Part shown: in pieces, positions 22,282 through 50,115 of the stretch
Numbering within the stretch: the stretch's first letter is position 1
Layout: each line of letters starts with the position of its first letter
Origin: an uncultured Gammaproteobacteria bacterium
GTDB lineage: Bacteria > Patescibacteriota > Microgenomatia > UBA10105 > UBA927
DNA: 50,115 nt
Assembly (NCBI GenBank): GCA_964394685.1
Contig: CAYMYO010000005.1
Span: forward strand, 1-50,115
Direction: 5' to 3'
Notes under the pieces: model-generated
Database searches by the model: none
What the model saw: the letters and a program-made list of their open reading frames with translations, nothing else
Told to the model about the DNA's origin: nothing
Made by a program: the position numbers and the translations under genes

Positions 22282-22288
22282 AGGAAAT

Positions 22289-22534
22289 ATATTACAGAAA
22301 ATTATTCAAGTAGGAAATTCTCTTGCAGTGGTGCTCCCAAAACCATTCACAAAGCTCGCCAATTTTAAGGCAGGAGATTATGTTAGCATGGAGACCAATG
22401 AACATATTCATGCTGTCTATATTCGTCCGAAACAATATGAAGATCAACCAGGACTTACTCCGGAGTTTAAAGCATGGCTCGATGATGTAGCTTCAAAAGA
22501 AAAAGATACTATTCAAGCACTTGCCCGTGTATGA
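22289..22534 (+). CDS. AbrB/MazE-family antitoxin (apparent ATA start)
   Basis: KIIQVGNSLAVVLPK motif. A GGAGG SD precedes an ATA codon, and the gene overlaps the doc start (ATGA). Confidence 0.85.
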   Translation: MLQKIIQVGNSLAVVLPKPFTKLANFKAGDYVSMETNEHIHAVYIRPKQYEDQPGLTPEFKAWLDDVASKEKDTIQALARV

Positions 22535-25189: not shown

Positions 25190-25200
25190 TCTTCATATGT

Positions 25201-29005: not shown

Positions 29006-29604
29006 ATGTGTGAAACGTGCAAAGAGAAGTGTACATGTGTAGCTATAGCTGTGCGGAGAAAAGTTGAGGTATTTGGGTGGGTTTTTGAAGTAAACATTTC
29101 GGTCATACTTATATTACATCGGGGATGTAAAGCAATGTCAAATAGCCTTGATTGAAATTATTCCTTTGAGGCTAAACTATGGGGTAGTATTTTATGGCAA
29201 ACAAGATATAAATTATAGGATATATTTGCTATTTATCATATAATGATAGTAGTATATATCGTAATAACGCCAAAATTCATGCAGTTTCTTTTGCATATTG
29301 TTTAAATAGATATGTGAGTGGATTTTTGTAGATTATAACGATTATAAAACTTATAATAATTAAAATATTTATAAAAATTATAGAAAATCCTTTTAACATA
29401 TTTGTGGAAAACGAAGAAAAATATTTTTTTCTATTGCAGGAAAAATTTTCATCGTAGAGTACTAAATATATAATTAATAATACTTTGATATCTTATTATA
29501 TATTTATATAGTAGATGGTACGTTTTGATGTTATGATGTTTTTTTAAACACATAAATACGAAATTTGCACGAGTGGATAAATTTTGATACCCTGCATATA
29601 TCCT

Positions 29605-31133: not shown

Positions 31134-31273
31134 ACGCTTTTAGCGTTGCACATTTCTTATATGTTTGTCAACCCCTTGACAAAAGTATTTCACACCCATC
31201 ATAGTTATTAATATATAAGGAAGCGCGCAAGCGTCTGCTTTTGGGTTTGGAAACGAGGCACGCATCCGAAAAA

Positions 31274-34200: not shown

Positions 34201-37200
34201 TGCAGATAGTTATAAAATTTGTGTTTCAGATAAATCTGTAAGCGAAGCCTCTTGCGTTCAGAGGGCGATCGATGGCGCGAGGCAAGCCCAAAATGATAAA
34301 GCGCTTCAGGCATACGCTGATGTATATGAAAAGTGTAAAAAAGAAAACCGTTCCAATTGTGAAGCAGAAGCGCAAACTGCTGCGAAGGATTTCGGATTAT
34401 CCATGGTTGATTCTTTGAAAATTCCTCAAAGTTATGCGGTATATGCTGTACAAAACGAACAACGGCAAAAGAAATTTGATGAGGAATTTAATCCGAAGCT
34501 GATTTCCTATATTTTCTGCGATACGCAGGAGGTCTGTAATCAAGCATATAGTACAGCACTTCAAAGTTGTATAAGCATTGGTGGTATGACGCCAGCAGAG
34601 TGTGCGGCGTTGATAGCTGAATACAAACAAAAAGAAAAACAAACAGAAGCGCAGGGACAATGTGAGGGCGGAGGCAATTACGGGGACACGAGATCGGCAA
34701 CTGGCGGTAAAACAGAAATCTGCGAGTGCAAGACAGAAGAACAAGATGGTCAGCTTGCGATAGTCCCTGGTTCCTGTGGATGGAGAACTGCAAAAGCCAA
34801 TGCCTGCGGTACGCGGTTGGAGGGGGAAAATTGGGTAGATGGCGGGTATTGCTATACGTGTTATGTGCAGGATGGACAGGGAGTGATGGACAAACAACCC
34901 CTGGTTTCTCAATGGGGAGGAGAAGCAATGAGGCAGTTAAATAAAACGCGATGTTCGGAAAATTATACAGCAGAAAGAGATGCATACGGCGGACTTGTTA
35001 TTACGCCAGGCAAAGATGTTTCTATAAAAGTACAGACAGCTTCAGGCGAGCGGACATTGTCTGCCGGGCAAGCTATGTGTGTTGACGGAAAATGCGTTGC
35101 GGCAGAGATGAAAAACGGAAAAACAGAGAAAGTCGACGTGACAGCGACAGGCGCGTCGAGCGCGTATTCAGGATCATGCCCCAAAGAATGCGCGGTGTAT
35201 GGCGGTCGTTCATCGGAAACCATGGTGCAGTCAGGTTTGGCTGGGAAGGTCCGCGGTTACTATCGGTGTTCTGATAATGGAAGACAAGTAGAAACTGTTC
35301 AAATAATTGATTGGCCCGTTGAAGGAACAGAAAAAATAGACGTAAAGATCGCATGCGACTCGGGCATCTGCAGCGCTGGTGTGTGTGTAGAAGGGAAGCA
35401 GGTGCGAGATGCTTCTACCGGAAAATCACAAGTGTGCGGTGTGGAAGAAACATGTACGGTGATTGATCCTAATACTAGTATGAATTTGTCTGTCCGTATT
35501 ATCGAAAAACAGGATGGAAAAAATACTATCTATCTACAGCAAATATCAGATACTGCTCAAGCCGAAGAGTACTATAAACAAGTGAATCAAAATTTATCCG
35601 AATCTATGGCAAAAGGCGACATTATAGATTCTAAATACATTGCCTCATTCCAGGATTTTATCAAAGAAAACAAAGGCGCGACGTTTGATGACTATATTGG
35701 GCAGAAGCAACGGGACTCAATACAATTTGTAAAAGATAACGAGAAAAAATGGTATGACATTTTTCTTAATAAAACAGCGGCAGAAAAAGCGTTCTCGATG
35801 ATGACGGCAGATAACGCAAAGTGGTTTGTCGATGGAGTCGTAAGCGGACGGATAAATACGGAAGATTTTTCCAGACAGCTCGATGCCGCTAGCGGGTGCA
35901 CAGAAAAAGAATTGCAGATGGGTGATGCAGGACGTAAAGCATGTGGTGTTCGGAATCAAAATAAAATTTCCGATCAAGCGACTAATGTTCTTATTAATAC
36001 GTATAACCAGACGCTTACCACTGACGATCGCGTGGGCGTACGCAACGCGATAATACAAAACTTGATTGCTCAAGGAAAAAGCGTTAACGATGACGCGATA
36101 CTTTCGTATCAAAAAAAGCAGTTGGAAGATGCGGCGCATGTAAATAAGAAATGGGGAGCAAATTACTTCAGCCAAAAAGAGCTCGATGATCCGGTGATAC
36201 GAAGCCGTATTGAGCGGGCGATACCTGAGTTTCTTGAAGTGAATGTGGCGGATGACTTTGTTTCGGCTCTTAGGGGAGAAACAGATTATTCTTCGATTAG
36301 GGCGCGGTATGAGGGTGATTCAGGGCTTCGTGCAGGAGCTGGTTTTAATAAATTCTTAACCGGAAATTATGTGAAAGGGCTTGTAGCGATCGAGCAGGGG
36401 AAGGATGAAGGGAAAGACGGGAATTACGGAATGGCCGCATATCATACTGCGCGCGGCGGCTTGATGATAGCGGCAAAGCCAGTCAGCTACGCTGGATTAT
36501 TAATTGTAGGTGCTGTAGGTTGCGCTACAACTTTATGCACAAGCAGCGCTGCGATTTTTGCGGCAGCGATGCCAGCGCTTGGAGCAATGGGTACGATTAG
36601 TGCCGTAGGGGATGCGGCGGCGGCCTGTGATTTATCTCAAGGAAGTGGAGAAGCCTGTGCAAAAGCAGGTGTCAATGTTGCAATGAGCGCGGCGCTTTGG
36701 CATACGGGCAATCTAGGATTGAGGGGATTTCAACTGGCAAAAACAGGTACATCTTTAGCAGATGATGCATTGCGACTTGGTAATAAAATGGTGGAAAGTA
36801 CCGTTGCGAAAAGCGGAGCAACTTCAGGCTGGCAGCAGCTGGGCGCACTGGCTGACAAAGGGGCAATGGCAACGACGCGGGTTGCGCCGCTGTACTTTGG
36901 GTACAATGGAATAGACTGCATGACGCAGGAAGGATCGAATAAGCTTGATTGCGGACTCATGATAGCACAAGCAGGCGTTTCCATGATGCAATGGAGCAAA
37001 GCCTTTCAGACCAGTACAAAACTTTCTGCAGTTGGGAGAAGTCTTGATGTAACCGTTGACACAGGACAAGCCGTTATTGCGTGTGCAATGGCGGCAGCTT
37101 CCGGCAATCCATCCGGTTGCGATCAGGCGATTTTGTATTCCGGTATGTCTTCCGGTCGATTAGCAGGAGGCGGAAAAACAGGAGAAGCATTCAGATCTGC

Positions 37201-40200
37201 AGAAGGAGAAAGGGTGTTTGAATCGGAATATGCCCGTTTGGAAGACGCACGAAGCCGAGTTTATGATCTTTATAACGAAAAAGGTAAACCATTGGACACT
37301 ACCCCTGAGGCGCTACAGGCAAGGAAGGCGGCGGATATAGCGCTGAGAGAAGCAACATATAGATTTGCTCAGGAAGAAGTACAGGTGCGGTTAGGGTTGA
37401 AGGCAATCGGAGGAGATGCGGCAAATTATACCAAAGCGCAGCAGGAGCTGATGACTAAACAGGCGGCATACAAAACCGCAGACGAAGCGTACAAGGCATA
37501 TAAGTCATCAAACGCTGATGCCCCCCCCAAAGATCTGCTGAATAGCGATCAATTTAAGACGTATAATTCGGCCAGAAAACAGCTTGCCGAGGCATTCCAG
37601 AAGTCTGTGGGCGAGCAAACAGTTCTTAAGCCGGTTGAATTTACTCCGAAAAACGATAGCGAACAAAAGATCCATGACGGATATAAAGCAAAGCTTCAGG
37701 ATTTTCAGGAATTCGCAAAAAAAACTCTCCCTGATGATCCGGCGTACAGACAGAAATACTTTGCGCTTGTTGACGCGCAGGAGTCAGTGATGTCGTTGAG
37801 GCAGAACAAAGAGCAAAATAGCTTTACGGAAGCGATAAAAATAAAGCGCGATACTCTTATCCAGGAAAACGAAAAAATACGGGCGCTGGAAGAAGAAAAT
37901 GCAATTTTATCCGCAAAAAAGAGTAAAAGAGATATAAAGCTTAATGCGGCAAGGGTACAGGAAATACAGCAGGAACTGCAGGAAGCGTACCAAAAAACAA
38001 GAGTATTAAGCAGTGAAAATGCGACTCTAGCCCAAGCCCGCGATGAAGCCGGTACAACATTCGGAAAGATTAAAAATGCGTTGGGTCTTGGTACGACAGC
38101 AGAAGGAACGCTTGCGAAAACACAAGCACAAATCAAAAAGCCAACAGCAGTAGGAAATATCAGAGCGATGGCTGAAAACGCTCGAGCAGCGATTGCAGAA
38201 AAAATATTCGGTACGGCAATTGAACCAACTGCATTTGCAAAGCTCGTCGACCGGGCTGTTGGAGAACGTGCGCGAAACAATCTGATGCTTGAGGCAATCG
38301 GACGAAGTTTCGGGAAATCAGAAATTGATGCTGTGACCGGAAAAGTTACAGAAGTATCTCTTATTGATGAACGCGGTGTCAAAACAACAGTCGACATAAC
38401 CGGAAAAGACATTTCAACGATTAATACACTGAAAAATGCATTACTCGGTGAAGGAATATTCGACATTACATTTTCAGATGGAACGGTCATGCGTATTGCA
38501 AAAGAAGGTGCCGGTTTTTTGAGCAAAGTATATATGACCGCAACAGACGCAAATGGTATAACACAGGCAGGAAGAGAAACAAATGTAACTGTCAAATCAT
38601 CACTTCGTGTCCAGGGAGAACTTAAAGGAATAACTAAACCGGTTACTCTTGATGGAACAGAGTATGCAACTTCTGCAGATTTTGCCAAGGCAGCAATAGC
38701 AAAAAATACCCGGTATGTCGACGCAATAATTGATGGAAAACCCATGCGGCTTGAAGTAGCAAACGGGAAGGTGTTTATTTCCGAATTTGATGCAACAGGA
38801 AGACTGCAACGGGTGAGTGGAGTGACCACAAAAGCCTACATTGACAGTAGTTTGCTCACTGGCGCCAGTAAGGCAATGGTTGATCGGTTTGTAACGGAAC
38901 TTGATACGTATGAAACGACCTATCTGAAGTATAGACAAGAGAAATTTACGACAGACAAGGCTAATTATGAGAGTGCACACGCAAAATGGGTAACGGACCG
39001 TGATGCTGCAGCGGCAAGTAAAACTGAATTTAAACGTCCGGAACCGCAACCGCCAAGAGAAATGACTTCGTATGGATTCTATGGACCGGAACAAGGTGCA
39101 AAGAATCAATTGCCGTTTTTAGCAGATGCTCTTTTGGGAAAGCAAACCGGCATGAAAGGAAAACTGTATGAAGCAATTACCGGAATCGGAAAATCAAGTA
39201 CGCTTATTCCTGAAATCGCCATTTTGAAAGCGAAAATGACGAATAAGCCGGTGATGATTATTCTCAATACCCCTCAGGATGTGGCACAATTTTTTGAAGC
39301 GTTCCCGAAAGACCTTTTCGCAAAATTAGCCGATCCAAACAGGCCGCTTACTGTTGAAGAATTTGATGCTAACAGACCGCTTTCAGAAAAACAACTCGCT
39401 GCGGCAAATATTATTGTGACTACCAAAGACGCAATTTTTGAGTCCATCCGTGGCCCTGACAGCAAACCTTTTATGGATAAATTAAACGGCGCAGTGCTTC
39501 TGGCTGATGAAGCGCAGATGACACTTCGGTTGGAAATTGATTACGTGATTGGTCAGGGAGAGAGGACTACAGTCAATGCCGATTCAAAAAAAGTATTTCA
39601 GGAAGTGTATGATAGTGCATTTTTCAAAAAAATGCGTGCTGAACTTGGTTCCGGTTTGGATGGAATCCAAAAAGCGCGGGATGCAGGGACTGTTGCACTT
39701 GTCGATGGCCGCGGAAAAATTATCGATGCAACCACACAGGAAACGTTGTATCGGGAACTGTTGACGCAATCAGAACAACTTGCAGGAGCGACAAAAGATT
39801 CTACCAGGGTTTATATAGAGGAATATCAAAAAACGCATAACGGATCCACATTTGAAGACGGAATACTTGATTTCCTCAATAAAACAGATTTTGCAGGCCT
39901 TCCGGATTCAGCGGGACTTCGAAATGCACAGGTAGAAATGCGCAAACGGGTGTCTGTCGCAAATAGCATTATCAATCAATTTGCACAAGTTCCGTTGACT
40001 GATTATACGGTGAAAGACGGACGCATCGTGTTAGCTGAGGGCGGAGCAATTTCAGGCCGTACCCCCTCACGTGCTTCAGATTCCCTTGCGTTGGAATATG
40101 TGGGATACGAAACACTTAAAGGTCGCAATCCGAACCTTAATGTCACGCTTCAGCCTGATCAGGTAACCGTGACCAATTCCAGTGTTTCGACCAATTATGC

Positions 40201-43200
40201 GCGGTTTTTGAAGAATTTTTCGGAAATTTATGGATTTACCGGCACCCCGGAAACGGTCCGTCAACAGTTTGACAGGATTTACGGAGTAAAACTGGGAACC
40301 GGCGGGATTAATCAGGTTGATTTCGTGTTTGGTACAAAATCTACAACAGGGACATTTGCAGGAGGCGATCATCCTCCAGCTTCACTTCGTGGCGCAACAA
40401 GCGTACAGGATATAGAAATACGTTTAGCAGAAATTCGTGGTTCTCGAACATCCAAATCAAATATTAATTCTGATATTGAAATCATCGTCAATGCTGATCG
40501 TGGAGTGCCTTCGGATGAACTCATCGTCATGCAACAAAAATTACGTCCGGATGCAACCATTATTGTTAATAATCCGAACGGTGAGCATTATAAATTAACT
40601 GCGGTAACCGATAGCGCAGGTACGACAACGTGGCAACGGACGCCACTCAATGAAACTGCAGCGAGAGCGGAAGGGTACGCATCTGCAAAAGACATGATTG
40701 ATGCGGAAATGGCATATGTGCGAAATCAAAAAGGGAAGGCCGTGATGGTGTATGAATTTGGCCAGCATTATGGCGTTGACCGCGTCACGTTACAAAACGA
40801 AGCGTTTACAGTGCTTACCGGTCCTGATACGACAATGACAGAATTATTGCAGGCAATCGGGCGTGACCGCGGACTTAATGGCGGGAATGCATCGAGTGCC
40901 TATTCACAGTTTGACATTATCAAAAGAGGAGAGGGAAATGATCTTATGTATCTTCAACCCGATCAAATTCTTGAGTATGCCTCAAAAACATTTATCGAGA
41001 CGGAGGCGGCGGCAAACCGTCAGGCAGAGCTTCAGGCTGTGGGAAGAATAGCGGAAAATATCGGATTTGACATCCTTTCCCGAATGCAGAATGCGGCAAC
41101 ACCGAAAAGCTTTATGGATAAGGTGACCGGTCGGGGGCTTGATCCGGTTGTTCTAGACCAGCTGACTCGTATTCGCGAAGGGTTGCGTCAACAGGCGGAA
41201 CTTGATTTTTCCATAGGAAAAAGTGAAATTACCGGAAAAGCAGATGTTTTGGAAAAGATAAATACCGTACAGCGATATCTCGCAAGTGAACTTGCGCGGA
41301 TTGAAGCCGATCCAAATCTTGTAAACAGTATTGGAGCAGATGGAATGAAAGTGTTGCGTGATGCAGTTGGGACGAAAGTAGCGTTTACAGAAGCAGATTT
41401 GACCTTAACCGGAAACGGAACTTCCGGAGGGAAGAAAATCGCTATTGTTCCATATAACGATATTAAAACGATTCGTGATTATGTAGATCAACTCAATGCG
41501 GTGATGAAAGAGTCTGATCTTCCGGACACTATCGCCCGCGGAAAAACTCCAACCCAGAAAAATATCGAACCTATTGCAGCACAACAACCAGCCACCCGTC
41601 CCGATCTCACCACCCCCGCCTCCCGCCAGCAGGCAATAACGGCAGGGCAGGAAGCGATCAGGAACTGGCAGGCGGATCCGGCGTTTGTGCGTACACCTGC
41701 CGACAGAGCACAAGTATTAACCGGTTTATCTGCGGTACGAGCTGCAGCAGCAGCTGCGCTTGCAAATGTTGCTCAAGCTCAAGCGGCTCTGGATGCTCTT
41801 GCAAAAGAAGCAAAACCATATCAAGTATCAGCATTACCCGGAGCTAAATTTCAAATGGGCGATGTTGTTGGTACCGTAAAAATTGAAAGCCCTGATCAAC
41901 TTATATTGCGTATACCAAAAACCGGCGGAAGATCGGTAACGACCGCAGATCAAACGACGTTTGATTTTGACAACAACACCTATATTATTGCTCCAAAAGA
42001 TTATACAGGTAACCAGACGAAAGCGGACGTGTTGGCAAAGGGCGGTATTGAAGTAACGGCTGATACGCAAGTAACGCGTCAGGAACCTGTAAATTCAGAG
42101 GCGGCAGAAGAAGCGCGGACTGGGCGTAACTCCGCGCAACAGGCGGCAGCAGAAGCACAGCAGAGTCAGGATACATTTGAAAACGCCGCCCGTGAGGACG
42201 TAGCGACACGGTTGGGGAATGCATTAAGCACAACTACTGATATTCCAGTCACAGCTGTCCAGGCGATTGTGGATTATGAAACCGCGGCAGCGGAAGCAGT
42301 CACCAAGATGCCGGAAGCAGAGGCACAGAATATATCAGACCCAACAGTACTAGATCAAAACGCCACAGTACAAAATGTACGAAAAACAGCAGTGACAGCG
42401 CTTGATGCATATAAAATAGTAAATACCCTTACTTTTGAAACAGATACCGTTTTGAACAGCGTCTCCCATCCGGTGATGCGGGCGTTTATCGCCGCGGCGA
42501 GAGAAGCGTCAGAACAGCCGGCGGCAGTGCAGCCGGAAATCCAGCCTGCGCAGGCGCAAAAAGTCAGATTTAGCCTTATTAACTGGTGGGAAAACACCGC
42601 CAAGCCGTGGATTGTTGATTTTTTTAAACGCGATAAAGCCCCTGTACAGACTGATGTTCTTGAGGAAGAAAAACAGATAGCGCAGAGAACAGTAGAAGAA
42701 TTAGATGTTAAACGTAAACAAGCAGAAACGGCGTTAAATACAGCAAAATCAAAAGAGAAAGAGTTGACGGATTTATTAAAGAAGAGCGCCGATAATAGCG
42801 AAAGCGAGCGCAAGAAGAAGGAAAACAACACCAAGGCCGCAGCCGTAATGCGAGAAGAAACAAGCACGCTCCTGAAGAGAACAATGAGAGAGGCGGCTAT
42901 GTTAATTAACAAACAAGATAATCTTAGTGATATTAAGCCGGAAAACATATTTTCTCAATTGGATTACGCTATTCGATCATTTCTATATCAACAACATTTA
43001 AGTAAACCCGACTATAAGAACGGCGTCATTTTAAAATTTAAAGCCGCAGGATTATCAGATGAAGACGCGATGTCTATTTATAAAGAATTTGAAAATAAGC
43101 TTTATTCCCTGGAAACATTTGATACGATAAAATCTTTGATCATAAGTGGGATAGAATTTGATGAAAAAGACGGAATAAAAGAAATAGAAATAACAGAGGA

Positions 43201-46200
43201 GATGCAACAATTGTATCGTCTGATGATCGGCGACACGCATGCGGATCCGGAGCAGGCAGAGAAAATATTATTCGAGCAAGGAGCAATAACAGTTGATCCA
43301 AAAACCGGTGAGTGGAAATTGAAGGATCCGAATTTGATATTAACGTTCCTTGGTGATTATTTTGACCGCGGGATTAAATTTGACAAAGAGAAACAGCAGT
43401 TTGTTATCAGACCGTATTTGGTGCAATCCGATAAATGGAAGAGGTATGCCCGCCAGCCGGGACTGGAGCTATTAAGGAGGCTAACTGACCTGCGACGCCA
43501 AGCGGAACAAGGCGGCGGAAAGATGATACTGATGGGGGGTAATCATGAGGTTCTATTTTTGGGTGCCGCGCTCGATGATATAAATTCGCATAATTTTGAA
43601 GGCTTCGGAAATTATGGCAAAAACGGGGTTGACAAAGAAGAAGTGCGCTTGGCAAAAAAAGATATAACTGGCCTTCGGACGATGCTTTCTTCTATGGACT
43701 GGGTGGTGATCCGGTCTGGCGGCGGAATACTCCAGCATTCTGATACCGCAATGTATGCCAAGTATCTTTTTCCCGATGAACATTTTGAGGAAACAGCAGA
43801 TGGTTTAATTTCAGAGAGTGACCTACAAAGAATTGTTGAAAGAGTACGAAAACAAGGATTAACAGCACAACAAGCGGCTGGAATGATAAACCGGAATATC
43901 AAAGCGATCATAAAAAGCGGAAACAGATCGCAAGTCATGGAATTGGCACTTGATTTGACGAAGCGCAGTCAATTTATCCATGATAAAGGAATTGCAGATT
44001 TATACAGGCAATTGTTTAAAACAAACAATAAGTTGGCGCCGCAGATTATTCACGGGCACAATGGAAATATTTCTCATAATTACAACAATGGCACTGTTAT
44101 CAACCTCGATTTTCATATAAGCAGGGCGTATAAAGGCGGAGATCAAGTATATAAAGACGATACAATAATTCCCGGTTTGGAAAAGAGGACAAGAAAACAA
44201 GAAGTACCAATAACACAATATACATATCGGTATACACAGCCAAAGGCGATAGAAGTTTTTCCAAATGATTATGTATTTGGACGATTTGCAGTAACAACGA
44301 AGGATTCTTCGGCGGCGCATCAAGCGGAATTGAACCAAGTTAGAAAAAGAATAAAACAACTGGAAACAGAGATACAGGACTTGGATAAGAGTATTGGTAC
44401 AGCAAAAATCACTCTTGACGCAGCTATGAAGATTTTAGATGCACAAACCAAGGTAAATACGGCAATTGCGGCATTGAAAAAAGAAGGATTGAGCCTCGGC
44501 GCGCTTGCGGTGACAGCGGAGATGGCGAAAGACGCCGGCAAGCTCGGCACAGAGTTTGCGAAGCTCACAGGAGAGGCGATTAAACGCGTGCAAGATGTTC
44601 CCGCGCTTGAAAAAATTCAGAATGCCTTTGCTTCTGCAGCGATTATTCCAGCAGGAATTGTCAGAAGCGCTATCGAGGCTGGGGATGTGACAGGTATTGT
44701 CCGTGGCGCAATTGATGAAGCGCGCGTGCGGAAGGCGGAAGAGGAAGTAGTGATGCCCAAGCCAGCAGCAGTCGTTCAGCCCGGAGTTACTTATGCCATG
44801 AAACCATTTAAACATTGGCTTTATGATGAAGTTAATTACGGCGAGACGTTTGCATTACTTACAAATGATAAAAAACAACCTTTATATATCCTTCACAAAG
44901 ATACAGCAGAAAAAATTGTTGCTGCCAGAACAGTAACGTATTCGCGGATTTTTGGTCTTCGGTATGGAAAAGAGGTTGGATTGAGTCCTGAAGAAGTAGC
45001 AAAATTGACTTCAGTTTCTTTAAGTGGCGCGACAACTTTCTACGAAGCACAGATAGCAAGCCGTGATGTTGTGCGTGGTACAAAATCGGCACAACAGATC
45101 AAAAATCTTGCAAAAGCAAAAATTACCGTAGAAAACAGGCAGGAGAATGGCGTCGGAGTTGAAGGATGGGCATATCGGCATGTGAAAAAAGCCATTGAAG
45201 GGAAGCCGGTCGTCAATAAATGGGAAGCATGGCAACCGACGCTTGGTGTTTTCAAATGGTACAAAGACCGCGTGGATGCAGAGAAACTCACTCCATTTAA
45301 TGACGGAACGAGGAACCGTTGGCAACAAGCAGGCAGTACCGCACTGTATTTCCTGACCCGCGCAACAGGAGTTCCGCTTTTTATTGATGTTGGTCGTGTA
45401 GCGAAGTATTTTATGGAAAATCCGTACATGGTCTGGCCGGTGGTGGTGGGAAGCATCATCCCCGCCAGCGTGATTATTGGATCATTTTTTATCGCGCCAG
45501 TGTTTCAAAACTGGATGCTTTGGACAAATTCATTTGTGCCGTGGGTTTTCAGTTCTTTTTCAAATATTTCCTATGTATTTTTTGGACAAAACGGTGTGCC
45601 CGGACTTATTGTATCGGGCATTATAGCCGGTCTCATAACGTCGTTATCTGCTTTGCCGACCCTCAATCCTGTTCTGACCGTTCGCCAAAAGTATGTGACA
45701 ACAACACAAGCACCAAGTCAGCCTTTGGCTGAAATAGCACCTGTTCCTGCGACTCCAGCAAAAAGTAACATTATCCCATCAACAATTACGATAGATCCAT
45801 CAATATTACCAACAACCGATGGAATTGTGGAAGCGGGTATTCAACAATATAAACAATTTATTGCTCAGCTTCCGCCTTCGATTGCAACAAGGATAACGAG
45901 TCATGCGAGTAATGAAATAGATATAAGTGAATATTTACTTGGGGCATTTATTGGAATAAGACCAGAAGATGATCTTGTGTTAATTAACCTTGCATTGAGT
46001 CCAAGCGAAAAAACCATTGTTGAACAAATTCTTTCAGAGGTCAGCGGGGGTAATATGATAGTAATTCCTCATGGTACAAGTGTCGGTATTGATTATTCAT
46101 TAGTGAATCTCAATGCGATAGAAAGAGTAATTCGTAAAAATCCGGCAGCCTTTCCAGCGGAAGCACAAAGCAATCCTAAGCAATGGATTATAGATAATCC

Positions 46201-49200
46201 TGATGCGTGGATTATAAAAGGACATGGCGATAATACAAAGATAACTAGGTATGGGCTAGTAAGTGGTTTCTCGCCATCGTCGATACCTAGATTTGTCGCA
46301 CGAGGTCAGGTACGGAGTGTATTAAGAGTTACAAACACTACGACGGGCGAAACAGAATTTAAATCAGAAATACAGATGTTATTAGGATCAGATTTTCCAA
46401 AATTTCAACAATTACATGATAATGACTATAACGTTCAAAGAACTACAGAAGAAAAAGCCCAATATAAAGCATTGTTACAAAAAATACAAACAACCCTGCC
46501 AATAATAACAAATGAACAAATAGATGCATTAGTTGATGAATTTTCGATTCAAATGCCTGGAAGTCATCAAGCAGGATATTCTGATGCAGATATTACCTAT
46601 ACCAAAGCTCAAGCAGAGTATTATGCCTACGCCAGAGGGAATATAGACGTAATGAGTCCAGTTGCCCCTGCCGCTCCTGCTGTTGATCTTCCTGCCGCCC
46701 GGCAAAAAGTAGCAGATCTTCTTGCCGATGCCAGAACATACAAGGTGTCTGATGTTCCAAGCACAAAAGAAGTCAACGCACTGGCAGATCTCAAACAATT
46801 GAAAGATCTCGAAACACGATTGACCAATGAAATTAAGTCAGGGATTCAAAATGAATTTGTTGAAAAAACTGCTGAATATCGTGCAATTACCGGAGTTGAC
46901 TACGATAAATTATTGCCTGTTGGTGATATTGTTTCGATGAAAGCTGCGGTAACATTATTAGACATAGCAATTGTGAAAAAGCGGATAGAGATACGAATTG
47001 CTGCAAATGAATTGAAAACAAAAGCGAATGAAGATAGTATTCCTGTTACACAACCTACTGGTTTGATACAGAAAATAGTGGTTAGTGTACAAAATAATGT
47101 TGAAGTGTTGAAACGACTCGAAGTGAAAGCACTTCTTGAAAGTATTAATGAGGTCACTGATGAAAATCGATTTGTTGCCCTATATACGTCTATCAACCCT
47201 GCATTTGGTCTATGGAAAACATATCCATCCGCCGTTAACGTGATTCAAGCCATCCAAACGCGGTGGGATGCAATTCAAAAAGTACAACAAGCACTGCCAT
47301 CCGCCCCGGTTGGTATTCAATCAACAATATATAACAATATTCCTGGACTTGACGGGTCGCTCACTCTGATGTGGGACGGGACAGCTATGAAAGCAGTTGT
47401 GAAAGATATAAAAGGCGCGGTGAAAACTTCGTATACCATACCGGAAAAAGAATATGTAGAAATTAAAGAGGCTCCAGGTGTATTTTTGCGCAATTTGCCA
47501 TTTGGAGACATGCCCGGGATAGAATTATCTTCAGGAAGATATGAACGATCAATTGAAATTAAAGACAGTGCGTTAGGAAAAACCTCTTTTTCTTTTGTAA
47601 CAGATAGTACTGGGAACATTTATGGAGCCGATGGAAAAACTCTTATTAAGGAAAATGAATATATATCTATAGATGGATCTACGCGCTATAAAGTTGCATT
47701 TACTGGTAGAGGGTATCTTCTTAAGAAAGACAGGGTAGCAGGTATAAAAGTTGGCGACAAAGCAACTTTGTCAGATGGAAGTGAAATGAAAATTACTGAA
47801 AAAGATCAAATTTTTTACATCGACGGGTGGACACGTGAACAATATAAACAAGCGATAGAGGATAAAAGACCACTACGATCGAGACGTTTTATATCAGGCC
47901 AAAATATACTTGAGTTGTCAACAACTGAAACTAATCCGGAAATGACTGTAGTCTTGATACGCGGCGACAAACATCAAATAGTGACAATCAATTCTAAAAT
48001 AACAGAAGAAACCACGCAGAACATTCCTCTTTCCAGCGATCAAATAGGAGTAACCACTATTGATCCTATACCAATGAAGGATGGGATGCGGTATGCGTTC
48101 TATACGAAAAAAGAAATAGAAGACAAAGTTGATCGTGCGTTGAATACATCAGACCCACAAAATTATGACGCTCAAGCGAGTGCATACAATAGATTGATCA
48201 GGCCACTGTTACAAGGACAGATTAAGATGGAAGATGTAGAAGAACTTCTCAATCAGATCGGAAGAAAAAATACATTAAACATCGATATTCCAACACTTAT
48301 AAAAAGCCTAAAAACAAAACTAGGTATCTCTGTTGATGTTGTTCCAGACTCTGCTTTGCTACCTCAACAAAACGCATTAAAAACAGGGATTGAAGTGTTT
48401 CCAAAACTGACTTTTCTTCAACAACCCGATGGGAGCTATATTCTTCGAGATACGACAGGATCTGTTCAGAAAGATACTATATTGACTGATTATACTGAAG
48501 TTATTTTTTCAGATGGTACGAAATACACATTCCGTTTGAATCAGGATGATGAACCGTACCTCTGGAAAGAAGGCGGTAATGAATTTATCCTTTTGACTGA
48601 AGACGGAATGGAACGGATAGTAAATGAAAAACTTCCTACTGAATGGGCATACCAGATGGGACATGGAAAGAGCGCTGGTATTCAATTGAATTTTGATAGG
48701 ACAATCTCATCTAAACACGCGGTCATTGGCCATACAGCATCAGGATTTTATATAACCGATACAGATTCGACAAATGGGACATACGTGAATAATAAAAATA
48801 TTCTTGATACAGGTAATGAAAAAGTTATACTGCAGGATGCAGACGTGTTAAAGTTGGGAAACCAACAATTCACCGTGCGGATCTATCAAGGAAATCTTTT
48901 TTTACAAGCGTCTGAATACGTTATTCATATCACAGAAGAGGGAGAAGTTGCCGCTGATGCAAAGCAGCCTAAAAAAATAACCGTCAATATGCCAACCATT
49001 GCAGTTGGTGTTGGTGCGGGAACGGCATACCACATGAAAAAGTCCAATAGCAATCCTGGCTCTGGTGAAGATTATTTTGGGAGCGGCCAAACAGGAATTA
49101 TTGCTGTTGCTGATGGTGTTTCAGCACGTGTTGCTTCCCATTCTCCCGAAGGGTCGAAATTTATCGTTGAGAACATGATACCGGTGATGAAACAAACGCA

Positions 49201-50115
49201 AACACGGAAATGGAAAACGGGAAGTCCGCAGGAAATTGCCATGTGGCTCTACGAACAAATAGACCGTGTCAATCAAGAGTTGATAAACAAATTTCCCTCA
49301 CCGACAGCCGCTACTACGTTTATCGGAGCAGTAGTTATTAACGGACGGCTCTATACCATCCGTGTTGGAGATGCTGAACTCTATCGCTTACGGGCAAATG
49401 GAGCATTCGAGGAGCTTGATCCTGTAGAGCCGTTTACCGCGCAACTTCCGATACCAAACAAACCAAATGTATTTGGCATTGATCAGTCTGATCCGGACTA
49501 CAGTTCATTTCGTGGTGCTCGAATAAAATCATACCCGATACAAGCAGGCGACCGGTTTTTTGCAACCTCTGACGGATATCAGAAATATTATAAAGAAGAG
49601 AAGGGTGTTCGTCTTTCCACGATGAAGGCGATGTTGCAGGGAGATGGATTAACTCCTACTATGGCAGAAGCGCGGTTTGCAACGAGTATTGCGCAGGGAA
49701 TAGCGCGAAATAAAGGATATAAACTAGATGATACAAGCGGAATTGCGATGTTTATTGATGCGATAACCCCAACGGTTATTGGTGTGAAAGCGGTTACGAA
49801 TGTTCCGCTGATTAGCACAAATCTGAAGAATCTTACGGAAGACACGTTTACTCAACAGCTACGTGCAACCTATCTTAAAGCTCTAGAAACGCGCAAGCAA
49901 CAACGGGAGATGGAAAACGCAATACTAAAAGTTCAATCGGCATTTGATAAGCTTCGTAGAGGAGGCGTTACGATTGAAGAACTCAAATCCACAGCACAAA
50001 CCACCGGTGAGCTTGCAAAAGAAGTCAGCACGCTTCTTCTGAATGCAGTGAGAGTTCAACAGAACAAACCATATCTGGAAAGAATCCAAGATGCACTCAA
50101 ATCCACAACCGGCGG
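31274..50115 (+). CDS. Giant multidomain protein, at least 6,280 aa, 3'-truncated by the window
   Basis: The frame starting at GTG 31274 (or ATG 31349) was open in every stretch I translated. The ORF track lists no closed ORF in this frame after 31274, and recognisable domains all fall in this frame. Confidence 0.92.
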   Translation, partial: MIRRRITAAKSCLPAGRQGFIQIIPMVILAIMAISSFVIISKTKHDQQDVRSRAGITCTKKTGVSGCELKTYKIVDEVCEPEQCFTTSGSVASVVSTPKPAATQPPASTSAPSSSSSCAEDGERPTSKGCCDGLSLVSGYCTYVKAKATVAPTEALKSSVTATPKPATPTTTPDPCANLATPDLRDACRQSGSTPTPKPAVSTPVSVTSTPKPAAPTSNISSPTKTPTRAPTSTPKPPTPTSDPCANLATPDLRDACRQGKSTPTSTPKPPSPTIETTCVGVGQAPTSSKRCCAGLVVYGTTCANPLPTKAPTKIPTPTKLSTPTPTITCLYGQITGFGGVRCNEAPVYTSTTPTVSSVCQSGKYQCKTEQWGVTVSQLCENNKWITKETCGLGCDGGTGKCNVYKNECKQGDRECKNGQFRSCKQDGSWGDFIDCATKTCSGNVCAMLTSKPTSPADRVASENFIPTPTKQDSKSCKSDQIWLDNKCVDVAYAGIKSSGWTGKWCPSNQDGICSPGFPPQCTKYCPGGCTGIVGFAYCPGSLTPSPTIASAPEATPIPKPTSPVDRVTSENFIPIPSPVHALVPGDKCEKNKCQTTCEFGGKWVLFVGWVCKDKPANWIEVPTVTPMPTIANSPTPTTAPITQATGAAPKPGADLTVGAGCYNPQETNPSKRGSVKNCIEECPHEYSVGYGGVYYCSPAPTGASTSAATPKLTPTPKSPTTTPDPCDDPTMTITERAECRKKQSVSVANCAGLTDPALSMCIAAVTGTGASLQMTQTTTQVVPTGSPFKTDSQIEAVQKAFVGGSIGKQVACGISGSISIGAGNEVFGCKADGSWENLTRKGVDTSYLTKDSRPTWVVGSLTAQIVDTKAGAVPADQRITVDKAAAGVPSEESVGSIVVPTLPPMKPCGAYPAGSVVIGPVSGNNELWECALDGRWVKCPTCLLTTIPSYLNTQLAYEEYLKNRTNVSQSARQAFADSYKICVSDKSVSEASCVQRAIDGARQAQNDKALQAYADVYEKCKKENRSNCEAEAQTAAKDFGLSMVDSLKIPQSYAVYAVQNEQRQKKFDEEFNPKLISYIFCDTQEVCNQAYSTALQSCISIGGMTPAECAALIAEYKQKEKQTEAQGQCEGGGNYGDTRSATGGKTEICECKTEEQDGQLAIVPGSCGWRTAKANACGTRLEGENWVDGGYCYTCYVQDGQGVMDKQPLVSQWGGEAMRQLNKTRCSENYTAERDAYGGLVITPGKDVSIKVQTASGERTLSAGQAMCVDGKCVAAEMKNGKTEKVDVTATGASSAYSGSCPKECAVYGGRSSETMVQSGLAGKVRGYYRCSDNGRQVETVQIIDWPVEGTEKIDVKIACDSGICSAGVCVEGKQVRDASTGKSQVCGVEETCTVIDPNTSMNLSVRIIEKQDGKNTIYLQQISDTAQAEEYYKQVNQNLSESMAKGDIIDSKYIASFQDFIKENKGATFDDYIGQKQRDSIQFVKDNEKKWYDIFLNKTAAEKAFSMMTADNAKWFVDGVVSGRINTEDFSRQLDAASGCTEKELQMGDAGRKACGVRNQNKISDQATNVLINTYNQTLTTDDRVGVRNAIIQNLIAQGKSVNDDAILSYQKKQLEDAAHVNKKWGANYFSQKELDDPVIRSRIERAIPEFLEVNVADDFVSALRGETDYSSIRARYEGDSGLRAGAGFNKFLTGNYVKGLVAIEQGKDEGKDGNYGMAAYHTARGGLMIAAKPVSYAGLLIVGAVGCATTLCTSSAAIFAAAMPALGAMGTISAVGDAAAACDLSQGSGEACAKAGVNVAMSAALWHTGNLGLRGFQLAKTGTSLADDALRLGNKMVESTVAKSGATSGWQQLGALADKGAMATTRVAPLYFGYNGIDCMTQEGSNKLDCGLMIAQAGVSMMQWSKAFQTSTKLSAVGRSLDVTVDTGQAVIACAMAAASGNPSGCDQAILYSGMSSGRLAGGGKTGEAFRSAEGERVFESEYARLEDARSRVYDLYNEKGKPLDTTPEALQARKAADIALREATYRFAQEEVQVRLGLKAIGGDAANYTKAQQELMTKQAAYKTADEAYKAYKSSNADAPPKDLLNSDQFKTYNSARKQLAEAFQKSVGEQTVLKPVEFTPKNDSEQKIHDGYKAKLQDFQEFAKKTLPDDPAYRQKYFALVDAQESVMSLRQNKEQNSFTEAIKIKRDTLIQENEKIRALEEENAILSAKKSKRDIKLNAARVQEIQQELQEAYQKTRVLSSENATLAQARDEAGTTFGKIKNALGLGTTAEGTLAKTQAQIKKPTAVGNIRAMAENARAAIAEKIFGTAIEPTAFAKLVDRAVGERARNNLMLEAIGRSFGKSEIDAVTGKVTEVSLIDERGVKTTVDITGKDISTINTLKNALLGEGIFDITFSDGTVMRIAKEGAGFLSKVYMTATDANGITQAGRETNVTVKSSLRVQGELKGITKPVTLDGTEYATSADFAKAAIAKNTRYVDAIIDGKPMRLEVANGKVFISEFDATGRLQRVSGVTTKAYIDSSLLTGASKAMVDRFVTELDTYETTYLKYRQEKFTTDKANYESAHAKWVTDRDAAAASKTEFKRPEPQPPREMTSYGFYGPEQGAKNQLPFLADALLGKQTGMKGKLYEAITGIGKSSTLIPEIAILKAKMTNKPVMIILNTPQDVAQFFEAFPKDLFAKLADPNRPLTVEEFDANRPLSEKQLAAANIIVTTKDAIFESIRGPDSKPFMDKLNGAVLLADEAQMTLRLEIDYVIGQGERTTVNADSKKVFQEVYDSAFFKKMRAELGSGLDGIQKARDAGTVALVDGRGKIIDATTQETLYRELLTQSEQLAGATKDSTRVYIEEYQKTHNGSTFEDGILDFLNKTDFAGLPDSAGLRNAQVEMRKRVSVANSIINQFAQVPLTDYTVKDGRIVLAEGGAISGRTPSRASDSLALEYVGYETLKGRNPNLNVTLQPDQVTVTNSSVSTNYARFLKNFSEIYGFTGTPETVRQQFDRIYGVKLGTGGINQVDFVFGTKSTTGTFAGGDHPPASLRGATSVQDIEIRLAEIRGSRTSKSNINSDIEIIVNADRGVPSDELIVMQQKLRPDATIIVNNPNGEHYKLTAVTDSAGTTTWQRTPLNETAARAEGYASAKDMIDAEMAYVRNQKGKAVMVYEFGQHYGVDRVTLQNEAFTVLTGPDTTMTELLQAIGRDRGLNGGNASSAYSQFDIIKRGEGNDLMYLQPDQILEYASKTFIETEAAANRQAELQAVGRIAENIGFDILSRMQNAATPKSFMDKVTGRGLDPVVLDQLTRIREGLRQQAELDFSIGKSEITGKADVLEKINTVQRYLASELARIEADPNLVNSIGADGMKVLRDAVGTKVAFTEADLTLTGNGTSGGKKIAIVPYNDIKTIRDYVDQLNAVMKESDLPDTIARGKTPTQKNIEPIAAQQPATRPDLTTPASRQQAITAGQEAIRNWQADPAFVRTPADRAQVLTGLSAVRAAAAAALANVAQAQAALDALAKEAKPYQVSALPGAKFQMGDVVGTVKIESPDQLILRIPKTGGRSVTTADQTTFDFDNNTYIIAPKDYTGNQTKADVLAKGGIEVTADTQVTRQEPVNSEAAEEARTGRNSAQQAAAEAQQSQDTFENAAREDVATRLGNALSTTTDIPVTAVQAIVDYETAAAEAVTKMPEAEAQNISDPTVLDQNATVQNVRKTAVTALDAYKIVNTLTFETDTVLNSVSHPVMRAFIAAAREASEQPAAVQPEIQPAQAQKVRFSLINWWENTAKPWIVDFFKRDKAPVQTDVLEEEKQIAQRTVEELDVKRKQAETALNTAKSKEKELTDLLKKSADNSESERKKKENNTKAAAVMREETSTLLKRTMREAAMLINKQDNLSDIKPENIFSQLDYAIRSFLYQQHLSKPDYKNGVILKFKAAGLSDEDAMSIYKEFENKLYSLETFDTIKSLIISGIEFDEKDGIKEIEITEEMQQLYRLMIGDTHADPEQAEKILFEQGAITVDPKTGEWKLKDPNLILTFLGDYFDRGIKFDKEKQQFVIRPYLVQSDKWKRYARQPGLELLRRLTDLRRQAEQGGGKMILMGGNHEVLFLGAALDDINSHNFEGFGNYGKNGVDKEEVRLAKKDITGLRTMLSSMDWVVIRSGGGILQHSDTAMYAKYLFPDEHFEETADGLISESDLQRIVERVRKQGLTAQQAAGMINRNIKAIIKSGNRSQVMELALDLTKRSQFIHDKGIADLYRQLFKTNNKLAPQIIHGHNGNISHNYNNGTVINLDFHISRAYKGGDQVYKDDTIIPGLEKRTRKQEVPITQYTYRYTQPKAIEVFPNDYVFGRFAVTTKDSSAAHQAELNQVRKRIKQLETEIQDLDKSIGTAKITLDAAMKILDAQTKVNTAIAALKKEGLSLGALAVTAEMAKDAGKLGTEFAKLTGEAIKRVQDVPALEKIQNAFASAAIIPAGIVRSAIEAGDVTGIVRGAIDEARVRKAEEEVVMPKPAAVVQPGVTYAMKPFKHWLYDEVNYGETFALLTNDKKQPLYILHKDTAEKIVAARTVTYSRIFGLRYGKEVGLSPEEVAKLTSVSLSGATTFYEAQIASRDVVRGTKSAQQIKNLAKAKITVENRQENGVGVEGWAYRHVKKAIEGKPVVNKWEAWQPTLGVFKWYKDRVDAEKLTPFNDGTRNRWQQAGSTALYFLTRATGVPLFIDVGRVAKYFMENPYMVWPVVVGSIIPASVIIGSFFIAPVFQNWMLWTNSFVPWVFSSFSNISYVFFGQNGVPGLIVSGIIAGLITSLSALPTLNPVLTVRQKYVTTTQAPSQPLAEIAPVPATPAKSNIIPSTITIDPSILPTTDGIVEAGIQQYKQFIAQLPPSIATRITSHASNEIDISEYLLGAFIGIRPEDDLVLINLALSPSEKTIVEQILSEVSGGNMIVIPHGTSVGIDYSLVNLNAIERVIRKNPAAFPAEAQSNPKQWIIDNPDAWIIKGHGDNTKITRYGLVSGFSPSSIPRFVARGQVRSVLRVTNTTTGETEFKSEIQMLLGSDFPKFQQLHDNDYNVQRTTEEKAQYKALLQKIQTTLPIITNEQIDALVDEFSIQMPGSHQAGYSDADITYTKAQAEYYAYARGNIDVMSPVAPAAPAVDLPAARQKVADLLADARTYKVSDVPSTKEVNALADLKQLKDLETRLTNEIKSGIQNEFVEKTAEYRAITGVDYDKLLPVGDIVSMKAAVTLLDIAIVKKRIEIRIAANELKTKANEDSIPVTQPTGLIQKIVVSVQNNVEVLKRLEVKALLESINEVTDENRFVALYTSINPAFGLWKTYPSAVNVIQAIQTRWDAIQKVQQALPSAPVGIQSTIYNNIPGLDGSLTLMWDGTAMKAVVKDIKGAVKTSYTIPEKEYVEIKEAPGVFLRNLPFGDMPGIELSSGRYERSIEIKDSALGKTSFSFVTDSTGNIYGADGKTLIKENEYISIDGSTRYKVAFTGRGYLLKKDRVAGIKVGDKATLSDGSEMKITEKDQIFYIDGWTREQYKQAIEDKRPLRSRRFISGQNILELSTTETNPEMTVVLIRGDKHQIVTINSKITEETTQNIPLSSDQIGVTTIDPIPMKDGMRYAFYTKKEIEDKVDRALNTSDPQNYDAQASAYNRLIRPLLQGQIKMEDVEELLNQIGRKNTLNIDIPTLIKSLKTKLGISVDVVPDSALLPQQNALKTGIEVFPKLTFLQQPDGSYILRDTTGSVQKDTILTDYTEVIFSDGTKYTFRLNQDDEPYLWKEGGNEFILLTEDGMERIVNEKLPTEWAYQMGHGKSAGIQLNFDRTISSKHAVIGHTASGFYITDTDSTNGTYVNNKNILDTGNEKVILQDADVLKLGNQQFTVRIYQGNLFLQASEYVIHITEEGEVAADAKQPKKITVNMPTIAVGVGAGTAYHMKKSNSNPGSGEDYFGSGQTGIIAVADGVSARVASHSPEGSKFIVENMIPVMKQTQTRKWKTGSPQEIAMWLYEQIDRVNQELINKFPSPTAATTFIGAVVINGRLYTIRVGDAELYRLRANGAFEELDPVEPFTAQLPIPNKPNVFGIDQSDPDYSSFRGARIKSYPIQAGDRFFATSDGYQKYYKEEKGVRLSTMKAMLQGDGLTPTMAEARFATSIAQGIARNKGYKLDDTSGIAMFIDAITPTVIGVKAVTNVPLISTNLKNLTEDTFTQQLRATYLKALETRKQQREMENAILKVQSAFDKLRRGGVTIEELKSTAQTTGELAKEVSTLLLNAVRVQQNKPYLERIQDALKSTTG
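31793..32050 (+). repeat. Internal repeat DPCANLATPDLRDACRQ x2 in the giant gene
   Basis: Copies at 31793-31843 and 32000-32050 differ only at synonymous sites. A second repeat, KPTSPxDRVxSENFIP, occurs at 32627-32674 and 32951-32998. Confidence 0.9.
39100..40900 (+). other. SecA-like SF2 ATPase domain within the giant protein
   Basis: Motifs TGIGKS (39179), LLADEAQ (DEAQ at 39506), DYTVKDGRIV..SGR, NYARFLKNFSEIYGFTGTPETVRQQFDRIYGV and QAIGRDRG (about 40850). Confidence 0.8.
43214..44125 (+). other. PPP-family metallophosphoesterase domain within the giant protein
   Basis: Motifs IGDTH (GDTH at 43229), GDYFDRG (43352), GNHE (43538) and HGH (44051). Confidence 0.9.
48644..48885 (+). other. 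FHA domain within the giant protein
   Basis: Motifs DRTISSKHAVI, ITDTDSTNGTYVN and LQDADVLKLG. The canonical GR reads GH here. Confidence 0.85.
49000..49760 (+). other. PP2C/PPM-family phosphatase domain within the giant protein
   Basis: Motifs GED (49064), AVADG (VADG at 49106), ATT, VGD (49364), ATSDG (SDG at 49568) and DDTS (49727). Confidence 0.88.

Follow-up and report, generated by a model that had tools for sequence, protein, structure and literature searches.

Two unrelated phosphatase cassettes and an FHA domain in a hypervariable giant protein of an ultra-small bacterium

The giant gene and its two phosphatase units

The window, meaning the whole stretch of 50,115 nucleotides analysed here, is the entire contig CAYMYO010000005.1 (C5) of a 25-contig, 1,003,333-base genome (GenBank assembly GCA_964394685.1) with a completeness score of 100%. 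The source organism is an ultra-small bacterium belonging to the Candidate Phyla Radiation (CPR), and the named records nearest to it by the LysM-M23 peptidase gene of the window are metagenome-assembled genomes of Candidatus Roizmanbacteria and the 'Patescibacteria group'. Our subject is a giant open reading frame (ORF), whose first 6,291 codons (31241..50113, + strand) begin with a TTG start and are still open at the 3′ end of the contig. The end of C5 is identical over 55 nt to the start of the reverse-complemented contig C6, this 55-mer is unique in the genome, and the frame is carried on across the join for another 4,864 codons (L001:5407-19998, - strand). Because the C5 frame continues on C6 through this unique overlap, we estimate the gene product at about 11,138 residues; the join is based on the overlap alone. 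The gene takes up about 3.3% of the 1.0-Mb genome, its frame is open over about 33 kb, and its G+C content is 0.43-0.48 across most of its length compared with 0.37-0.43 upstream. Searches of Pfam, NCBIfam and PHROGs left most of the 11,138 residues without a family match, and tiling the protein in 400-residue pieces against Pfam added weak hints of ResIII, HATPase_c_3 and Tox-ART-HYD1. The modules of the body are, in order, a DEAD-like ATPase, a PPP-type phosphatase, a membrane hairpin, an FHA-PP2C unit, an intein bearing an NYN domain, GHKL-like motifs and two HExxH motifs. The PPP unit, the FHA domain and the PP2C domain all lie in the single frame 31241-50113, and so in one chain, as an earlier sequence-only reading of the window had claimed. 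Below, G000 stands for this genome, the other G numbers for its relatives and the P numbers for proteins from the protein-database search.

The first unit is a PPP-type (Shewanella-like) metallophosphatase cassette at residues ~3983-4339 (43187..44257, + strand), placed by its motifs, a profile and an AlphaFold2 (AF2) model. The motifs from which the sequence-only reading had recognised a PPP-type domain (GDTH, GDYFDRG, GNHE and HGH) were all found, within GDTHAD, GDYFDRG, GGNHE and HGHN starting at nt 43229, 43352, 43535 and 44051. On the long query the Pfam Metallophos family stayed just under its cut-off of 21.5 (20.3 bits), and a 400-aa tile brought it to 22.3 bits; elsewhere in the genome Metallophos occurs in a single gene, a 270-codon ORF on contig C1. 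With phmmer the PPP region alone had no match among the PDB sequences at E <= 10. We then aligned the unit in six rows (alignment A1; rows 24-40% identical to the first one), taking in two free-standing enzymes, and the residues D14, H16, D55, D58, R59, N117, H118, H182, H289 and D306 are invariant, the metal ligands among them. The best PDB match of the A1 profile was the Shewanella cold-active protein-tyrosine phosphatase (2z72/2zbm/1v73, E 3.5e-20), followed by PnkP, BSU1, PP2A, RLPH2, calcineurin and PP1. The AF2 model, built on one and the same alignment as the profile, has a predicted local distance difference test score (pLDDT) of 75.0 and a predicted template modelling score (pTM) of 0.79. 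Its fold search returned 1v73/2z72 first, then RLPH2, WipB, PP5, lambda phosphatase, ApaH and WipA, with 56 PDB matches at E <= 0.001; the matches listed are mostly PPP-type phosphatases, plus ApaH, PnkP and LpxH. The resemblance to Shewanella-like phosphatases that had been noticed from the letters is therefore borne out by both the profile and the fold search.

The PPP family is described by motifs including GDXHG, GDXXDRG and GNHE, to which the bacterial type adds (I/L/V)D(S/T)G and H(A/G)G (PMC535813). The unit has GDXXDRG (as GDYFDRG) and GNHE, and for GDXHG it has GDTHA, in which the Asp and His ligands are kept and the last Gly is Ala; in other giants this first motif reads ADxHS or GDVHS. 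The later His ligands of the calcineurin-like fold are represented by H182 (in QHSD) and G288-H289, invariant in A1. Of the motifs of the bacterial type and of Shelph proteins, LDFH stands where (I/L/V)D(S/T)G is expected and QHSD stands for H(A/G)G, with Asp D306 kept and the Gly lost. The unit thus resembles the Shewanella phosphatase and the Shelphs (1v73, 2z72) in its GDxH, GDxxDRG, GNHE and G-H motifs and in an insert after GNHE, but differs from them in the QHSD and LDFH motifs, in a structural-alignment identity of 14-17% and in being embedded in a giant chain. On this evidence we class the unit as a predicted PPP-type enzyme with the Shelph archetype as its nearest solved relative, and we do not claim that it belongs to the Shelph clade. 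The Shewanella enzyme and RLPH2 act on phosphotyrosine (pTyr), and for this reason Ser/Thr specificity of the unit should not be assumed.

The second unit is an FHA-PP2C cassette at residues ~5723-6175 (48407..49765, + strand), which is common to other giants and was delimited by genome searches, alignment and model. It consists of an FHA domain (48653..48859, + strand; Pfam 51-57 bits, cut-off 20.7) and, directly behind it, a PP2C (PPM) catalytic domain (49070..49741, + strand) with the motifs GED, ADGVS, VGDAE, SDGY and DDTSG. The Pfam PP2C_2 match (39.6-44.3 bits, cut-off 24) covers nt 49070-49609, and the motifs ADGVS, GDAELY, SDGY and DDTSG start at 49109, 49367, 49568 and 49727. In a six-frame search the two domains were the sole copies of each in the genome. 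This is the arrangement that had been read from the letters, an FHA directly ahead of a PP2C with its metal Asp residues, and the His reported there in place of the phosphate-binding Arg is also real: in the alignment to archaeal ArnA (5a8i) 'mGhGks' of the query stands opposite 'mGrSp', that is, Gly-His for Gly-Arg. The residue set for binding phosphothreonine (pThr) is accordingly incomplete, with Arg changed to His and SxxH and TNG (Ser, His, Asn) kept, and owing to this change the grip of the FHA domain on pThr may be weakened or pH-dependent.

In a six-row alignment of the FHA-PP2C unit (A2, 28-33% identity) the Asp residues of GxD, ADG, GD, SDG and DDxS (D165, D179, D265, D332 and D384/D385) are invariant, their assignment to the canonical PP2C motifs having been made by eye. 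Both phosphatase units retain every metal-binding residue. The profile matched EmbR (E 4.6e-9), ArnA and Rv1747 in its FHA part, and Stp1 (E 1.1e-6), then tPphA, MspP and PstP in its PP2C part, where E values range from 1e-6 to 7e-3. The AF2 model has a pLDDT of 71.2 and a pTM of 0.63, and its top Foldseek matches are PppA of the Pseudomonas type VI secretion system (T6SS), PstP and tPphA, with template modelling (TM) scores of 0.66-0.72 of the target. There is also a weak match to TagH-type FHA proteins (TIGR03354, 37 bits against a cut-off of 120). Among the cassette copies, the pThr-binding residues of the FHA domain are canonical in G010 and G066, and Arg and Ser are both lost in G013, G075 and G063; the same two residues are lost in a separate FHA domain of the G007 giant. 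Since these residues vary among the copies, the FHA reader is less tightly constrained than the catalytic domain.

Phosphatase cassettes in giant genes of related genomes

Relatives of the two units were located by whole-genome six-frame searches. A word-indexed protein search gave almost none: residues 3950-6291 returned no giant relatives and the FHA-PP2C segment returned one FHA-only protein. A search of 1.84 billion representative proteins with the PPP unit returned 6 matches only. Two of them are cysteine-free giants of 4,366 and 6,618 aa, the smaller of which is named at its source 'FHA domain-containing protein, partial [Patescibacteria group bacterium]', and others are one fragment and two free-standing enzymes of ~280 aa. 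The sixth, a protein of 2,679 aa, was matched in nine short stretches and was set aside as what looks like a low-complexity artefact.

The A1 profile found the PPP unit at 14 places in 10 of the 87 genomes of the order (a search with the single sequence, in 2 of 61 genomes). Thirteen of these places are in frames of 5,378-21,156 codons and the remaining one is a 355-codon frame in G062. The FHA-PP2C query (residues 5780-6200) matched 16 places in 13 of the 87 genomes including G000, and all 16 are in frames of 1,828-21,156 codons. The whole unit was matched in G013 (17,285 aa), G075 (a fragment of 2,418+ aa), G010 (17,568 aa) and G063 (14,446 aa); the match in G066 (12,854 aa) is in pieces, that in G062 (10,184 aa) covers the PP2C part only, and the others are short and mostly of the FHA domain only. 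The family has 36 genomes, 24 of which carry a PP2C gene of ~250 aa; in the genus the count is 0 of 6. The query matched none of these genes. Similarity to G013, G075, G010, G063 and G066 ends at residues ~5723 and 6175, the edges of the cassette, and the loci compared there extend several hundred codons further on each side. In the single-sequence search and in a BLAST comparison, the giant and its 10,931-aa counterpart in G007 had only the PPP region and one other patch in common. By these sequence comparisons both phosphatase units are discrete cassettes whose occurrence is nearly confined to giant ORFs in related genomes. Open frames of 21,156 (G070:C22), 17,568 (G010:C3), 17,285 (G013:C8) and 16,236 codons (G093:C2) were seen in related CPR genomes of 1.2-1.8 Mb.

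The gene directly upstream, encoding a LysM-M23 peptidase (29584..30684, + strand), is the conserved neighbour of the giant gene by synteny in relatives. It is 62-76% identical in G001, G003, G005, G006 and G007, and in all four relatives whose downstream DNA was read (G001, G003, G006 and G007) it is followed by a giant ORF, the four lengths being 6,144+ (up to the contig end), 10,774, 10,674 and 10,931 codons. Given this conserved position in the four relatives, we rejected insertion of the whole giant gene by a mobile element. The giant ORFs of these four genomes match ours in short patches only, at 24-56% identity, and their modules differ: the G003 giant has a HopA1-like domain and LytR_cpsA_psr, that of G001 has Amidase_2 and a different Metallophos domain, and that of G006 has JAB, a GDSL lipase, LytR_cpsA_psr and a member of the PPP family (86.9 bits with A1). 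As the locus is conserved and the giant ORFs differ, the content is evidently swapped module by module. Among 13 more distant LysM-M23 loci a large open-ended ORF was found downstream in one, the sequence available behind six of these loci being shorter than 4.1 kb. In G007 the giant of 10,931 codons is directly followed by another open frame, at least 5,345 codons long (G007:C2:190001-206035, L007), so that two giants stand in tandem. Taken together, we are confident that the two units are real phosphatase cassettes within a giant envelope protein that is hypervariable, and regard them as probably active.

The remaining parts of the protein and the neighbouring genes

The giant protein starts with an N-terminal membrane anchor preceded by a basic stretch (residues 34-52; 31340..31396, + strand; hydropathy 2.63), a segment that the giants of G001 and G003 share at ~54-56% identity. 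It is followed by a head rich in Cys and Pro/Thr/Ser (residues 53-1960; 31397..37120, + strand); 93 Cys fall within the first 2,000 aa. A first putative hydrophobic hairpin, rich in Gly and Ala, lies at residues ~1741-1790 (36461..36610, + strand) according to hydropathy. A second one, with two helices (residues 4728-4752 and 4783-4805; 45422..45655, + strand), is placed by hydropathy between the two phosphatase units, and the scan of the whole protein gave about five hydrophobic segments. The P-loop, DEAD-like ATPase (39158..40885, + strand) was recognised by the motifs GKSS, DEAQ, TGTPE and QAIGRDRG. It has a weak ResIII match (19.6 bits), and its nearest Atlas clusters by language-model features are SecA_DEAD (0.90); the Pfam family SecA_DEAD (PF07517) matched canonical SecA and one other gene in the genome and did not match the giant at E <= 0.1.

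A helical linker of ~85-140 aa recurs in the protein after the PPP unit, after the PP2C domain and after the intein. Its first copy (residues 4397-4481; 44429..44683, + strand) was detected with a profile from the other two copies (E 2.7e-6), the second is at residues 6206-6345 (49856..50113, + strand, continuing into C6), and the third is at residues 7149-7288 of the joined protein. This recurring linker may mark the boundaries of cassettes. The intein is in the C6 part (residues ~527-869 of it; L001:17392-18420, - strand; Intein_splicing 71-76 bits) and looks complete, with Cys1, a C-terminal His-Asn and Thr at position +1; an NYN nuclease domain (88-91 bits) is nested in it at the usual position of the homing endonuclease. 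The chain also bears two HExxH motifs (residues 6664 and 10482), as well as GHKL-like ones (HATPase_c, 20.5 bits). Near the C-terminus Tox-ART-HYD1 is matched weakly over its first 20 positions (17.2 bits, E 0.008; L001:6049-7248, - strand, tile residues 221-240), a hint of a tip resembling ADP-ribosyltransferases (ART).

The distribution of cysteine divides the protein sharply. Beyond residue 1960 there are 3 Cys in ~9,180 residues, namely Cys1 of the intein and two near the C-terminus, whereas ~80 would be expected in the body from the genomic Cys frequency of 0.87% (the mean over the 523 ORFs of the genome with 250-1,500 codons). The same split of head and body was found in every giant examined (G001, G003, G006, G007, P0002 and P0003), with 40-82 Cys in the first 1,000 aa of the head and a nearly Cys-free body of 4,000-9,000 aa. 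The cassettes in giants contain no Cys (4 of 4 PPP rows and 6 of 6 FHA-PP2C rows), and their free-standing homologues P0006 and P0007 contain 6 and 1. Exclusion of cysteine is known from the exported proteins of Gram-positive bacteria (PMC2823432). Here it is the strongest hint that the body, including the phosphatases, would meet an oxidising environment or a translocation step at some point.

Upstream of the giant gene the order is rho, a gene of the APH family, a gene on the minus strand combining helix-turn-helix (HTH), collagen and S74 elements, the LysM-M23 gene and the giant; the genes downstream of the giant gene converge on it. The HTH-collagen-S74 gene (26309-29005, - strand) encodes 898 aa with two HTH domains of the excisionase/MerR type, collagen repeats and a Peptidase_S74 tail-fibre chaperone domain, and it adjoins the LysM-M23 gene across the genus. 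Between it and rho, G000 alone has a small S23p-like (23S_rRNA_IVP) ORF and the APH gene (24779-26316), a slot that is empty in G001, G003 and G006. Just upstream of rho (22121-22920) a MazE-like antitoxin gene is followed by a Fic/Doc gene, and these are probably a toxin-antitoxin pair.

Kinases, partners and possible substrates

The sequence-only reading had seen no kinase, and a check of the giant ORF and of the genome for Hanks-type kinases agrees with it: in the complete sequence, searched in six frames, neither Pkinase (PF00069) nor PK_Tyr_Ser-Thr (PF07714) was matched (0 each), with control genomes positive. BY-kinases (TIGR01007) and STAS domains (PF01740) also had 0 matches in six-frame searches of the whole genome, so that the substrate of partner switching of the RsbU/SpoIIE type was not found. 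The caveat is the APH-family phosphotransferase gene (25102..26316, + strand; 65 bits), the sole gene with a kinase fold found in the genome; its NCBIfam matches are weak and to small-molecule kinases. We considered this gene as a conserved partner of the giant and regard that as unlikely, since it is missing from the syntenic slot of G001, G003, G006 and G007 and its patchy occurrence (17 of 61 genomes) does not track the cassettes. We counted as cassette-bearing 15 genomes with a PPP unit or a match containing PP2C, leaving out genomes with FHA only; some of them are only 81-93% complete. Ten of the 15 lack a Pkinase match at E <= 0.001 (G000, G006, G007, G010, G013, G027, G031, G066, G075 and G088), and five have one (G022, G062, G070, G071 and, below the family cut-off, G063).

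The reading that we tentatively prefer, although it falls a little short of an even chance, is that the cassettes are active erasers acting on phosphoproteins made by the kinases of another cell. Our reasons are the absence of kinases, the exclusion of Cys, the shuffling of the cassettes with wall-active, lipid-active and effector-like modules, and the precedent of WipA and WipB, translocated Legionella effectors with a PPP fold (PMC5454105, PMC5572681). Both phosphatases would then be active, the FHA domain would steer the PP2C domain, and the Shewanella-like PPP unit may also accept pTyr; the substrates would most likely be phosphoproteins belonging to a partner or host cell that is touched or entered by the giant protein after its export. 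Earlier, from the letters alone, the domains had been suggested to be cargo. This idea gains indirect support from the setting, with discrete cassettes shared only with other giants, a hypervariable gene, a nearly Cys-free body and WipA/WipB among the fold neighbours; the delivery into another cell is putative. The Dot/Icm effectors WipA and WipB (PDB 5y9o, 5nny) rank 5 and 48 among the fold matches of the PPP unit and share its fold, but they are separate proteins delivered into eukaryotic cells by a type IV system, and no secretion system is linked to our phosphatase.

Several points weigh against a partner's phosphoproteins as the substrates. In three relatives a Hanks kinase is found within the same giant chain as an FHA domain and/or a phosphatase: in the G022 chain two canonical FHA domains are followed by the PPP unit and by a kinase with HRDVKPGN and DFG, the 21,156-aa ORF of G070 contains PPP, FHA and Pkinase, and G062:C77 contains PP2C and Pkinase. 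Such chains suit regulation inside the protein and a set of effectors equally well. Because small PP2C genes are common in the family (24 of 36 genomes) and Pkinase matches are rare (7 of 36), a missing kinase match is weak evidence for foreign substrates in this clade. Divergent kinases are also possible inside the 11,138-aa protein itself, most of which matches no family, and the APH-family gene with its kinase fold lies 5 kb upstream of the giant gene. The ATP-dependent modules (the DEAD-like ATPase and the GHKL-like motifs) argue for a cytoplasmic location somewhere along the chain, and the topology of the giant protein cannot be fixed by a hydropathy scan. Both AF2 models were built from alignments of only six rows, and a scan of the neighbouring genes showed none that points to a secretion system, release sites or an immunity gene.

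A bolder form of the partner reading, which we consider rather improbable, is that the Cys-free body, ~9,000 residues long, passes as a thread from the CPR cell into a partner, as a single-chain, multi-enzyme injection device whose phosphatases silence the Hanks signalling of the host, a kind of signalling missing from the parasite. If so, the host would be rewired or disarmed from within by shuffled cassettes, and the cassettes here would be a pair erasing phosphoserine, pThr and pTyr, the intein-borne NYN nuclease, GHKL ATPases, zincins and possibly the ART-like tip. MARTX, polymorphic and polyvalent proteins are similar in their long chain, in variable enzyme modules swapped among relatives and in an internal element of the HINT type. 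The likeness ends with RTX repeats, an immunity gene and a phage or conjugative context, none of which was seen in the giant and its neighbours, and our HINT element is a complete-looking intein, unlike the release domain of multi-effector toxins.

The most serious alternative, itself doubtful, is regulation in cis, in which the FHA domain and the phosphatases would form a built-in phospho-switch for the assembly, export or activity of the giant protein in which they lie; here the kinase would be unrecognised, lost or supplied by a partner. The model for such a switch is the threonine-phosphorylation pathway of PpkA, PppA and Fha1, which gates the H1-T6SS of Pseudomonas (PDB 6jkv), and the mycobacterial PknB, PstP and FhaA are comparable. 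Both systems combine a PP2C and an FHA reader on an envelope machine, and PppA and PstP are the top fold matches of our PP2C model, PppA being the best; our case differs from them in that no kinase was found in the genome and that FHA and PP2C are fused inside a giant. The weak TagH-type match also fits this alternative, as do the mid-chain position of the modules next to others that use ATP and the single giant chains of G022, G070 and G062 that hold a kinase together with an FHA domain or phosphatase; because of these three chains the self-regulatory reading stays alive. It sits badly with the lack of a Hanks kinase in G000 and in 10 of the 15 cassette genomes, and with FHA domains that have a replaced Arg here and have lost both Arg and Ser in G013, G075, G063 and G007, yet accompany intact phosphatase sites. 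Nor does a purely cytoplasmic body explain the exclusion of Cys. A further known arrangement is that of the plant protein KAPP, which consists of a membrane anchor, an FHA domain and a PP2C domain and docks on a pThr site that it then erases. Our unit has the same order of FHA and PP2C in one chain, but its FHA domain has His for Arg and no specific sequence relationship to KAPP was detectable.

Less probable again is that the PPP unit, and possibly the PP2C domain, acts on non-protein substrates such as nucleotides of the Ap4A type or the phosphates of lipids or wall polymers, beside wall- or lipid-active modules. Bacterial PPP enzymes do include diadenosine tetraphosphatases, and their substrates are unpredictable from sequence (PMC535813); ApaH, PnkP and LpxH are among the fold neighbours of the PPP unit, and the sister giants contain Amidase_2, LCP and GDSL modules. 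Nevertheless, the solved relatives closest to the PPP unit are protein phosphatases, the PP2C domain is fused to an FHA domain, a reader of phosphopeptides, and in P0002, P0003 and G022 the PPP unit, too, occurs with an FHA domain. Finally, it is very unlikely that the modules are decaying, non-functional relics of cassette shuffling, as the Arg to His change of the FHA domain, the PPP motif deviations (GDTHA for GDxHG, LDFH for (I/L/V)D(S/T)G) and the weak Pfam scores might suggest, since all metal ligands are invariant among cassette copies of only 24-40% identity, the frame is open over 33 kb and the AF2 models are confident in the catalytic cores.

Giant ORFs have been reported from Omnitrophota, and smaller ones from Patescibacteria, as poorly conserved and membrane-bound, with a possible function in adhesion or pore formation (PMC10066038). 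A preprint on giant genes describes divergent SecA_DEAD domains and lists Ser/Thr phosphatases among the domains common to the giants of Actinobacteria and Omnitrophota (bioRxiv 10.1101/2023.11.21.568195), and giants of predatory ultra-small bacteria have been suggested to combine the sensing of prey with overcoming its defences (10.1101/2025.01.14.632903). Our protein is similar to the Omnitrophota 'Archaeovorins' and the Patescibacteria giants in being encoded by a single ORF longer than 10,000 aa within a very small genome, with membrane segments, few recognisable domains and poor conservation, and its DEAD-like ATPase shows a likeness to SecA_DEAD in its language-model features. It differs from the SecA_DEAD-bearing Omnitrophota giants, which have numerous transmembrane helices, in its ~5 hydrophobic segments and in being unmatched by the Pfam family SecA_DEAD. 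The words 'FHA', 'cysteine' and 'intein' do not occur in the main text of the preprint, so that the Cys-rich head and Cys-free body are not described there; the main text does not describe the cassette nature of the phosphatases or the absence of kinases either. A literature search joining FHA, PP2C and Candidate Phyla Radiation found nothing relevant.

The giant proteins of ultra-small bacteria are still functionally opaque. The present case offers several handles on them, namely shuffled enzyme cassettes, two unrelated phospho-erasers that often occur without a kinase in the genome, and bodies that strictly exclude cysteine. With a partner's phosphoproteins as the tentatively preferred substrates, the hypothesis that results is that interference with the Ser/Thr/Tyr phosphorylation of the partner may be part of the dealings of CPR bacteria with their hosts.

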